A DNA stretch of 64,000 nucleotides from an uncultured Pseudomonadota bacterium. Its GTDB lineage: Bacteria; Pseudomonadota; Gammaproteobacteria; Methylococcales; Methylomonadaceae. Below the pieces are notes generated by a model. That model saw nothing but the letters and a program-made list of their open reading frames with translations, was not told where the DNA came from and made no database searches. The translations under genes and the position numbers were made by a program. The DNA lies in the NCBI GenBank assembly GCA_903848935.1, contig CAINHO010000015.1:4426-68425 (forward strand). Direction: 5' to 3'. Every line of letters begins with the position of its first letter. The stretch's first letter is position 1. This document shows, in pieces, positions 14,964 through 16,739 of this stretch.

Positions 14964-14997
14964 TAAAAAACGCGACTTTTTAGGGTCGCGTTTTTTT
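14964..14997. terminator. Rho-independent terminator
   Basis: AAAAAAACGCGACTTTTTAGGGTCGCGTTTTTTT. Stem CGCGAC/GTCGCG with T7. Confidence 0.8.
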
Positions 14998-15019: not shown

Positions 15020-15703
15020 TCAAACGGTAATGACGGAATCTGAAACATATTCTTCCAAGCCTTGACGAACAAGTGTTTTATTATCACGATTCCCCGTAAT
15101 AATGACTGTCATGCCTTTATTTTTTAACCATTCAAATAACCGACGAAGTTCAGCACGCAAAACAATCAGATTCGAATAACCTGAAAACAAGGATTCAATC
15201 GTATCGAGAACTACACGTTTCGCGCCAATGTTATGAATGGCGCAACCTAAACGAATAAACAAATCTTCTAAATTGAATTCACCATTTACTGTGATGTCGC
15301 TCACAAAATCCACCGAGATTTTTTTACGCTCAATTAAGTCATCGTAGTCAAATCCAAGCCACGTTGAATTTAAGATTAAATTTTCTGTTGAGGCTTCAAA
15401 TGTGACAAATACACCTGGTTCGTCATGCTCTATCACGCCACGCGCTAAAAATTCCATTGCAAGTAACGATTTACCTGCATCGCCGCAAATCAGCGTTGGA
15501 CGACGCAGCAGGTTATTACTCACAATTCCGTCAAGTTCCTGAATATCTGTCGGTGTTTCTACAGGAAGTAAATAATGTTCATCTTTAAAATAACTGCTTA
15601 CATCTGCTGAACTATCAAATAGATAACAAAGGTGTGGTGAACTTCTTTCACCACAATCGTTACAGTTCATGCAGAAACTTTTCATTTTTTTTAAACTGTT
15701 CAT
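15020..15703 (-). CDS. KaiC/RecA-superfamily ATPase-like protein, C-terminally truncated with degenerate P-loop (possible gene remnant)
   Basis: 227 aa. Colinear by eye with the KaiC CI domain: HDEPGVFVTFEAS..., RVVLDTIESLF, GMTVIITG, LEEYVSDSVITV-stop, so the ORF ends where KaiC continues. The Walker A region reads LICGDAGKS, two residues shorter than GxxxxGK[ST]. The N-terminus has a Cys cluster, CMNCNDCG...HLC. Confidence 0.55.
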   Translation of the reverse strand: MNSLKKMKSFCMNCNDCGERSSPHLCYLFDSSADVSSYFKDEHYLLPVETPTDIQELDGIVSNNLLRRPTLICGDAGKSLLAMEFLARGVIEHDEPGVFVTFEASTENLILNSTWLGFDYDDLIERKKISVDFVSDITVNGEFNLEDLFIRLGCAIHNIGAKRVVLDTIESLFSGYSNLIVLRAELRRLFEWLKNKGMTVIITGNRDNKTLVRQGLEEYVSDSVITV

Positions 15704-15816
15704 TTTATACTCCCAAGTTTTTTAATTCGTGTATATTCTTAACTTACCAACTTTGTATTACAACCCCCTAAATAGGGTGTTACCTACCGTGTTTGTTGTG
15801 ATTACTTACCTGTTTT

Positions 15817-15852
15817 GAAGTGATTATGAATTTTGAGGTGATTATGAATTTT
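15817..15852 (+). repeat. imperfect 18-bp tandem duplication spanning the SD/ATG of the XRE paralogue B gene
   Basis: GAAGTGATTATGAATTTT followed by GAGGTGATTATGAATTTT (1 mismatch). Confidence 0.9.
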
Positions 15853-16221
15853 ATCAATGAAAAAATACGTTCAATACGCAAATCAAGGGATTGGTCACAA
15901 GAAGAAATGGCAGAAAAGTTAAGTATGTCTGTTCATGGCTATGGAAAAATTGAACGCGGAGAAACAAAACCTAATATTCTAAAATTGAGAAAAATAGCAG
16001 AAGTGTTAAATGTAGATTTACTGAAATTACTACTGTCTAACGGAAATAATAACAGTTACAACGATGCGAATAGTGGTTCATCGCGGGAAGTCACCTTTGA
16101 AATGGAAATACTCAAAATGGAAATTTCACACAAAGATGAAGTTATTTTCCTTCAAAAACGAGAAATAGCACATTTAGAACATATAGTTGAAGTGATAGAA
16201 TCCCGACGAAGCCAACGCTAA
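15820..16221 (+). CDS. XRE-family HTH regulator with coiled-coil-like C-terminus (paralogue B); probable start ATG 15844 (or 15826)
   Basis: MNFINEKIRSIRKSRDWSQEEMAEKLSMSVHGYGKIERGE is an HTH. An N/S-rich linker follows, then EMEILKMEISHKDEVIFLQKREIAHLEHIVEVIE. Confidence 0.8.
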   Translation: MIMNFEVIMNFINEKIRSIRKSRDWSQEEMAEKLSMSVHGYGKIERGETKPNILKLRKIAEVLNVDLLKLLLSNGNNNSYNDANSGSSREVTFEMEILKMEISHKDEVIFLQKREIAHLEHIVEVIESRRSQR

Positions 16222-16259
16222 TTGGGCAACACTGAATCTTCTCGTTTTACGTTTTCACC

Positions 16260-16739
16260 TTGCAACTCCGCGTTAGAATCAACAAAATGGTATTTAGGGT
16301 TATTTATGAAAATCGACGAAAATCGACGAAAATCGACGAAAAAATACGAACAATGCGAAAAGCAAGGAATTGGTCACAAGAAGAAATGGCAGAAAAGCTA
16401 AATATGTCTGTTAATGGCTATGCAAAAATTGAACGCGGGGAAACAAAACCTCATATTCCCAAATTGAAAGAAATCGCAGATGTATTAGACGTGGATTTAT
16501 CGGTGTTGTTAATCAATGATAAAAACGTGTATTTAATTAGCGGTGATAACAATAGTAATAATTCAAATAGTAATAACTCAGCGGGCAACCGTAACATTAT
16601 TGGCACACCGCCAGATGTTGCTTTTGAAATTCAAAAACTTCAAATGACGGTGAGCCATAAAGATGAGGTGATTGATTTTCAAAAACGAGAAATTGAGCGT
16701 TTGGAAGAAATTATTGTGTTGATGAAATCTGTGAATTAG
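16260..16739 (+). CDS. XRE-family HTH regulator with coiled-coil-like C-terminus (paralogue C); start uncertain (TTG 16260, ATG 16287 or ATG 16352 in frame; SD-linked ATG 16306 out of frame)
   Basis: IRTMRKARNWSQEEMAEKLNMSVNGYAKIERGE is an HTH. The linker is NNSNNSNSNNS. The tail FEIQKLQMTVSHKDEVIDFQKREIERLEEIIVLMK is very similar by eye to paralogue B. Confidence 0.8.
   Translation: MQLRVRINKMVFRVIYENRRKSTKIDEKIRTMRKARNWSQEEMAEKLNMSVNGYAKIERGETKPHIPKLKEIADVLDVDLSVLLINDKNVYLISGDNNSNNSNSNNSAGNRNIIGTPPDVAFEIQKLQMTVSHKDEVIDFQKREIERLEEIIVLMKSVN
16309..16338 (+). repeat. perfect 10-bp tandem repeat AAAATCGACG x3 (plus degenerate 4th unit to 16348) inside the 5' end of the XRE paralogue C gene
   Basis: Read directly: ATG AAAATCGACG AAAATCGACG AAAATCGACG AAAAAATACG. 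Confidence 0.95.

Follow-up and report, generated by a model that had tools for sequence, protein, structure and literature searches.

The window, by which we mean the whole 64-kb stretch of DNA analyzed here, carries two adjacent genes for regulators of the XRE (Cro/C1) type, XRE1 and XRE2. The downstream gene, XRE2, is the subject of this study (Table 1). Its product was recognized through the Pfam HTH_3 domain (61.1 bits against a gathering cut-off of 23) at residues 29-83 of a 159-aa open reading frame, and PADLOC and NCBIfam returned generic HTH matches only, under the family cut-offs. The LepA encoded by the second gene downstream shares 97% identity with Methylococcaceae MAG proteins and 90-91% with those of Methylobacter, and judged by these identities the host is a Methylobacter-related, freshwater, free-living Methylococcales methanotroph. 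Contigs matching the window bear the label BUCK21, and a set of stratified-lake metagenomes goes under PRJEB38681 (PMC8121793); we infer a lake origin for the clone. Divergent from the XRE pair lies a gene for a single-domain KaiC-like ATPase of 227 aa with a Cys-rich N-terminus (CMNCNDCG...HLC), which is a possible target of these regulators.

The repeat tract and the reading frames of XRE2

Directly 3' of the ATG at 16306, which is preceded by an SD-like AGGG (16296-16299), stand three perfect copies of the 10-bp unit AAAATCGACG and a degenerate fourth, AAAAAATACG, just as a preliminary description of the locus had read them. Tandem Repeats Finder places the tract at 16308-16342 (period 10, 3.5 copies, 100% matches), and it is the sole perfect tandem with at least three copies of a 4-20 bp unit across the window. 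Not one of 500 mononucleotide shuffles of the window contained a perfect tandem of at least three copies with a unit of 7-20 bp, and three copies at lag 10 have an analytically expected number of about 9e-8. The unit holds no stop codon in any frame. The tract is thus a perfect tandem in or near a coding region whose unit is not a multiple of three, and its three copies sit at the exact minimum for SSR candidates in published in-silico screens, which take more than two perfect repeats for 4-10-mers (PMC5231331) or at least three repeats for longer units (PMC5953494). As for the degenerate unit, the same GAAAAAATACG also occurs in the upstream paralog and in orthologs.

Copy number sets the frame. 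As previously described, the present three-copy state sends the ATG at 16306 through 31 codons into a TAA (16399-16401), and one, four or seven copies bring it into the HTH frame. With two or five copies the HTH frame is closed by a TGA overlapping this ATG and the internal ATG alone is left, while with zero, three or six it is open back to the ATG at 16287 and the TTG at 16260. In the three-copy state a complete HTH domain can therefore be reached solely through the frame of these two upstream codons. Both had been listed as entry points in the preliminary description and hold as such; the internal ATG that it had put at 16352 lies at 16353-16355. The product of this internal start is without residues 1-9 of the native protein and probably without most of helix 1.

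Among the candidate starts, only the ATG at 16306 has an SD-like match. Its anti-SD duplex energy of -3.6 kcal/mol is close to the median (-3.2) for the starts of long ORFs in the window, and the values for the ATG at 16287, the TTG at 16260 and the internal ATG at 16353 are +0.2, +1.2 and +0.1 kcal/mol, respectively. A return to the HTH frame by -1 ribosomal frameshifting at G-AAA-AAA (16338-16344) was considered and set aside, the A6 being conserved E-K-I coding in all homologs. As a separate observation, the TAA that ends the 31-codon frame sits 2 nt before an HTH-frame ATG at 16404 (the M of ...KLNMSVNGY...), where termination-reinitiation would yield an HTH-less protein consisting of the C-terminal coiled-coil-like part alone.

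Table 1. Features of the XRE gene pair and its surroundings (window coordinates).
Feature	Position	Strand	Basis
KaiC-like ATPase gene	15020..15703	-	Pfam PF06745, E = 4e-36
22-bp imperfect direct repeat upstream of XRE1, core TACCTACCGTGTTTGTnGTGATT	15780..15823		
In-frame 18-bp tandem duplication of SD and ATG of XRE1 (TTTTGAAGTGATTATGAA / TTTTGAGGTGATTATGAA)	15813..15848		
Upstream paralog XRE1, 125 aa, 54% identical, intact, strong SD	15844..16221	+	ORF, pairwise comparison
Promoter-like TTTTCA-16 nt-TAGAAT	16252..16279	+	Consensus match; alignment to L002
159-aa ORF, HTH frame, from TTG	16260..16739	+	Open frame
150-aa ORF, HTH frame, from SD-less ATG	16287..16739	+	MVFRVIYENRRKST precedes KIDEKIR
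Conserved native start codon ATG	16306..16308	+	Ortholog starts, P0001 start, DdrOC alignment, anti-SD energy
31-codon out-of-frame ORF from native start	16306..16401	+	Peptide MKIDENRRKSTKKYEQCEKQGIGHKKKWQKS; TAA 16399-16401
Three perfect AAAATCGACG copies (+20 bp against the one-copy allele)	16309..16338	+	Clean 20-bp gap in L001 alignment
Degenerate fourth unit AAAAAATACG	16339..16348	+	Conserved coding of (E)KIR, helix 1
128-aa ORF from internal ATG (M32)	16353..16739	+	Begins 3 residues inside HTH_3 match

Homologs and single-copy relatives

A search over 5.8 billion proteins yielded 282 relatives of the regulator at an E-value of 1e-5 or better, and the nearest named ones belong to Methylococcales metagenome-assembled genomes. 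The motif MK[IV]xEKIR is present in 18/18 fetched proteins, either N-terminally or just after an open upstream frame, and 80 family loci in species-representative genomes start with M-x-x-x-[E/D]-K-[I/V/L]-R. The structurally characterized DdrOC (PDB 6rnz), one of the XRE regulators in which helix 1 begins at the N-terminus, is likewise an HTH_3 protein, and its N-terminus, MK[IL]HE[KR][IL]R, aligns from the first residue of both proteins; this match is limited to the HTH domain (E = 6.6e-5), whereas the C-terminal coiled-coil-like half of the protein studied here is family-specific. Given the ortholog N-termini and the DdrOC alignment, the ATG at 16306 is the conserved start. XRE2 in the window has no intact frame from that start, and in the relative on contig L001 this frame is intact. 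The ortholog starts and the anti-SD energy together bear out the earlier proposal that the repeat cuts the HTH frame off from its conserved, SD-linked start.

The tract itself is neither conserved nor recurrent in orthologs. None of the 80 family loci has a tandem repeat (unit of at least 4, at least 2.5 copies) within -60 to +90 of the start, and none of the orthologous proteins read carries a repeat tract there; the homologs checked include Pasteurellaceae and Neisseriaceae members. Because it is absent at the start in every ortholog and family member, the tract does not represent a conserved, selected feature. The family as such, defined by an XRE HTH domain, a C-terminal coiled-coil-like half and the M-x-x-x-E/D-K-I/V-R start, is widespread and often multi-copy (loci L029-L090, in Pasteurellaceae, Neisseriaceae, Moraxella and Chromatiaceae); its best NCBIfam match is the phage RstR repressor, under the cut-off.

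The closest protein match, P0001, is a 137-aa protein (MKIDEKIRTLRKARNWSQEEM...) encoded on L001 and starting at the ATG equivalent to 16306. It is the one-copy protein that the preliminary description had predicted (MKIDEKIRT...), apart from one substitution. L001 is 97.5% identical to the window at the DNA level over 4 kb and has exactly one AAAATCGACG unit, and the alignment has a single indel, at the repeat, where 20 bp are cleanly missing from L001 (one unit against three). A more distant relative on L002 (73% aa identity) reads GGAGGTGAGT-ATG-AAAATTGATG-AAAAAATACG, again with one unit behind a strong SD. Since both L001 and L002 carry one unit, two units were gained in the lineage of the window. 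A scan of genome contigs gave a best match of 64% aa identity, and no conspecific genome was found in it; the loci that it returned were the ones surveyed for repeats across the family.

Compared by eye, the window and L001 differ at four positions within the gene, three non-synonymous and one synonymous, and against the outgroups P0002 and P0003, also by eye, all three amino acid differences are derived in L001. The three-copy allele, judged from these three changes, would therefore be either very young or still under selection. Further stops, frameshifts or an excess of derived amino acid changes, as expected of a pseudogene, were not seen in it, a comparison that has little power with so few differences.

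A second, independent lesion was found in an unrelated family member, the P0114 lineage (L104-L108), which has another genomic context and reads ATGAAAATACATGAAAAATACG, the A6 of intact relatives being shortened to A5. The deletion lies in ATGAAAATACATGAAAAAATACG, some 70 nt before the gene as called, and frameshifts the conserved start; 12 contigs of JGI, ENA and Logan assemblies carry it. As it arose independently in the same A-rich stretch, we regard this region as a slippage-prone mutational hot spot. Four other short calls (P0019, P0024, P0045 and P0057, beginning MRES... or MSVNGY...) were considered as recurrent N-terminal disruptions and dismissed as choices of the gene caller, the DNA being intact; among the short homolog calls examined, P0114 alone has a real frameshift.

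The surroundings of the gene pair also vary among the relatives. L001 (~988-1649) carries about 660 bp absent from the window (~14985-14995), between the DUF2970 and KaiC-like genes, with a 101-aa gene without Pfam match and a 106-aa gene with matches to dnstrm_HI1420 and, weakly, HTH_3, possibly a toxin-antitoxin pair. The core of the imperfect repeat upstream of XRE1, TACCTACCGTGTTTGTnGTGATT, is conserved in L002 (~595-625), ahead of the single-copy relative, which makes this repeat a candidate operator, and the segment is missing upstream of XRE2. XRE1 itself has two possible starts owing to its 18-bp duplication, the ATG at 15826 with a weak SD and the ATG at 15844 with a strong one. The duplication recurs unchanged in L001 and is lacking from the single-copy relative of L002, and it indicates that such duplications arise here without a switching role. 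Taken together, the P0114 frameshift, the XRE1 duplication and the survey of short calls show an N-terminal context that is prone to slippage, and no designed switch.

Copy number within the clone

The repeat number was three in 10/10 other assemblies of the window's clone, at the consensus level, where minority variants would not show. These comprise ERZ18665086, ERZ18665320, ERZ27313573, ERZ27313566 and ERZ27313574 as well as the Logan assemblies ERR4195065, ERR4194677, ERR4195058, ERR4194689 and ERR4194688, some of which may come from common sequencing runs. The seven that were compared with the window (L003-L009) are 100% identical to it over 1-3.4 kb of flank. The 150-aa product, which includes the repeat-encoded peptide and is therefore diagnostic of three copies, occurs on 17 contigs, and the 128-aa call on 9 contigs, with three copies in 5/5 of the places read; the identical downstream gene is found on 27 contigs. 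Identical DNA has thus been given products of 150 and 128 aa by gene callers, which should be kept in mind when annotations of such loci are used.

Alternative alleles were not encountered. Exact look-up among ~15 billion proteins gave no one-, four-, six- or seven-copy protein in the window's background, the cluster at 90% protein identity contains the 150-, 128- and 137-aa forms only, and there was no two-copy contig among the places read. A search of JGI metagenome contigs for the exact pattern TTATTTATGAAAATCGACGAAAA returned only an unrelated chance match (L010). Co-occurring strain-variant contigs (L096, L097 and L098), found through variants of the KaiC-like neighbor, all end inside XRE1; assemblies tend to break at the paralog pair, limiting the recovery of further alleles.

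Assembling repeats is generally difficult, and nothing more than this would favor the extra units being an artefact of assembly or sequencing that is absent from the DNA of the organism. Against it, the same three copies were obtained by different assemblers and pipelines (BUCK21 scaffolds, k141 MEGAHIT-style contigs and Logan contigs) in 10 assemblies, and a tract of 30-40 bp is well inside the read length, so that the artefact reading is effectively refuted and its probability close to nil.

The same data bear on the view that the locus is a contingency locus, in which the tract slips at an appreciable rate and reversibly moves the regulator, with its regulon, between a native-start ON state (one, four or seven copies), a hard OFF state (two or five) and an alternative-start state (three or six). 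A perfect, non-triplet repeat right after the conserved start, with a unit free of stops in every frame, is what such a locus would look like; one- and three-copy alleles do exist in strains that are 97.5% identical, the published in-silico cut-offs are satisfied, and phase-variable transcription factors are known, e.g., through the poly-C tract of Mga (PMC10330708). However, the consensus copy number is three in every assembly of the clone, the one-, four-, six- and seven-copy products and two-copy contigs were missing from the searches above, and the tract is missing from all homologs checked. There are only three units, and the host is a free-living Methylococcales methanotroph. The mutability of SSRs drops steeply at low copy number, and we know of no SSR phase variation described in the Methylococcales. 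We therefore consider a contingency locus distinctly unlikely. The slipped-strand contingency architecture put forward in the preliminary description is in part supported, by the change in copy number (one against three) and the agreement with screening cut-offs. Its further suggestion of an operating switch that could make a whole regulon phase-variable is not supported, given the uniform assemblies, the absence of alternative-copy proteins from the collection and the lack of such a tract at the start of any homolog, and the invariance that it had named as evidence against itself is largely what repeat counting in related assemblies gave at the consensus level.

Origin and consequences of the expansion

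We suggest that the three-copy allele is probably the result of a recent, lineage-specific slipped-strand expansion that is fixed and not switching, and that it uncouples the regulator from its native start, so that XRE2 is left null or hypomorphic, with the adjoining paralog as a buffer. The ancestral gene, as reconstructed from the one-copy relatives, is ATG-AAAATCGACG-AAAAAATACG, an imperfect 10-bp direct repeat (8/10) bracketed by GAAAA. It is formed by what are now the first unit and the degenerate one (GAAAA...GAAAA), and could have been the seed of slippage. Imperfect short direct repeats with microhomology are a classic substrate of slipped-strand duplication. Seeded in this way, replication slippage would have duplicated the unit from one copy to two, and the perfect two-copy tract would have slipped again to give three. 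The added 20 bp put the conserved, SD-linked ATG out of the HTH frame, and ribosomes starting there would produce a 31-residue nonsense peptide up to the stop at 16401. Two poor alternatives would be left, the SD-less ATG at 16287, possibly a near-leaderless AUG, for a 150-aa protein extended N-terminally by 14 residues, and the internal ATG at 16353 for a 128-aa protein with most of helix 1 gone. The net result would be a null or strongly reduced XRE allele, possibly rescued via the ATG at 16287, and tolerated in a clone that keeps an intact paralog immediately upstream. XRE1 is a possible functional back-up, and lower output of the XRE2 protein would be the expected phenotype.

Several observations sit less comfortably with a loss of function. 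The remainder of the gene is undamaged, and the window lineage has no derived amino acid changes relative to L001, pointing to an allele that is young or selected. Furthermore, the three-copy class keeps the HTH frame open to an upstream ATG where two copies close it with a TGA, which hints at compensation over plain loss. Minority copy-number variants would escape consensus assemblies, and low-rate reversibility is mechanistically possible.

An alternative is a compensated allele, in which two copies closed the HTH frame and the third reopened it to the ATG at 16287, giving a working 150-aa regulator translated from a leaderless or near-leaderless AUG. The copy classes behave as this would require (zero, three and six open to the ATG at 16287 and the TTG at 16260, two and five closed by the TGA), the ORF has no further lesions, the window lineage no derived amino acid changes, many samples yielded assemblies of the clone in which the allele is fixed, and the 150-aa ORF is the one picked by gene callers on 17 contigs. 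A near-leaderless AUG is conceivable from the sequence, since the promoter-like -10 element TAGAAT (16274-16279) ends 7 nt 5' of the ATG at 16287 and aligns with a TACAAT upstream of the single-copy relative in L002. However, a promoter scan found 6 sites where 6.0 are expected by chance, the ATG at 16287 has no SD (+0.2 kcal/mol), and it would face competition from ribosomes loading at the SD-linked ATG at 16306. By our own rough estimate, an open stretch of 23 codons with an upstream ATG has a chance of ~10-20%. The repeat-encoded extension is present in no homolog read, the few long N-termini among them being open frames before an intact MK[IV]xEKIR. On balance, a compensated allele seems unlikely.

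Very unlikely, in our judgment, is a three-state translational selector combining these elements, in which the native SD start would serve at one, four or seven copies, the frame would be closed by the TGA at two or five, and a near-leaderless AUG at the promoter of the gene itself would serve at three or six. If true, it would mean heritable and reversible heterogeneity of a regulon outside the host-adapted pathogens in which contingency loci are known. More generally, if the tract switches, SSR phase variation of a transcription factor would gain a case from an environmental methanotroph, in which the 10-bp unit is unusual and the logic has three states. On the preferred reading of a fixed expansion, the locus provides a well-documented natural case in which quasi-repetitive N-terminal coding seeds an expansion, which in one clone throws one copy of a duplicated regulator out of frame.

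Comparison with known systems

The opa CTCTT repeats sit just inside the coding region, and like other SSR loci of Neisseria, Haemophilus and Moraxella, XRE2 has a perfect non-triplet tandem just after the start codon, the copy number of which sets the frame. Those loci have many units (5-25 in the case of CTTCT repeats; PMC5953494), vary within a clone and recur across homologs and species, whereas the tract described here has three, is invariant in its clone and is absent from homologs, in a host that is a free-living methanotroph. In this locus, the copy number is three in all 10 other assemblies of the identical clone and one in the 97.5%-identical strain of L001.

Regulators subject to slippage include BvgS, with a poly-C tract, and FlgR/FlgS of Campylobacter. 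Phase variation of a transcription factor through slippage in its coding region is already known, e.g., for Mga of group A Streptococcus and its poly-C tract (PMC10330708). The likeness of XRE2 to all of these lies in slipped-strand mispairing within a regulator gene, leading to a frameshift that would alter a whole regulon; the difference is that theirs are homopolymer tracts with experimentally demonstrated reversible switching, while XRE2 has a 10-mer and switching is only a candidate property.

A further counterpart is the ordinary microhomology-mediated tandem duplication that causes a frameshift, as in an incipient pseudogene. XRE2 shares with this class the 5-bp GAAAA flank, the strain-specific and fixed occurrence and the disruption of the native frame, and a second member of the family (P0114) has suffered an independent A6-to-A5 frameshift in the same stretch. 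It departs from the class in that two successive unit gains were needed, and in that an upstream in-frame ATG has been kept while the remainder of the gene has not decayed.
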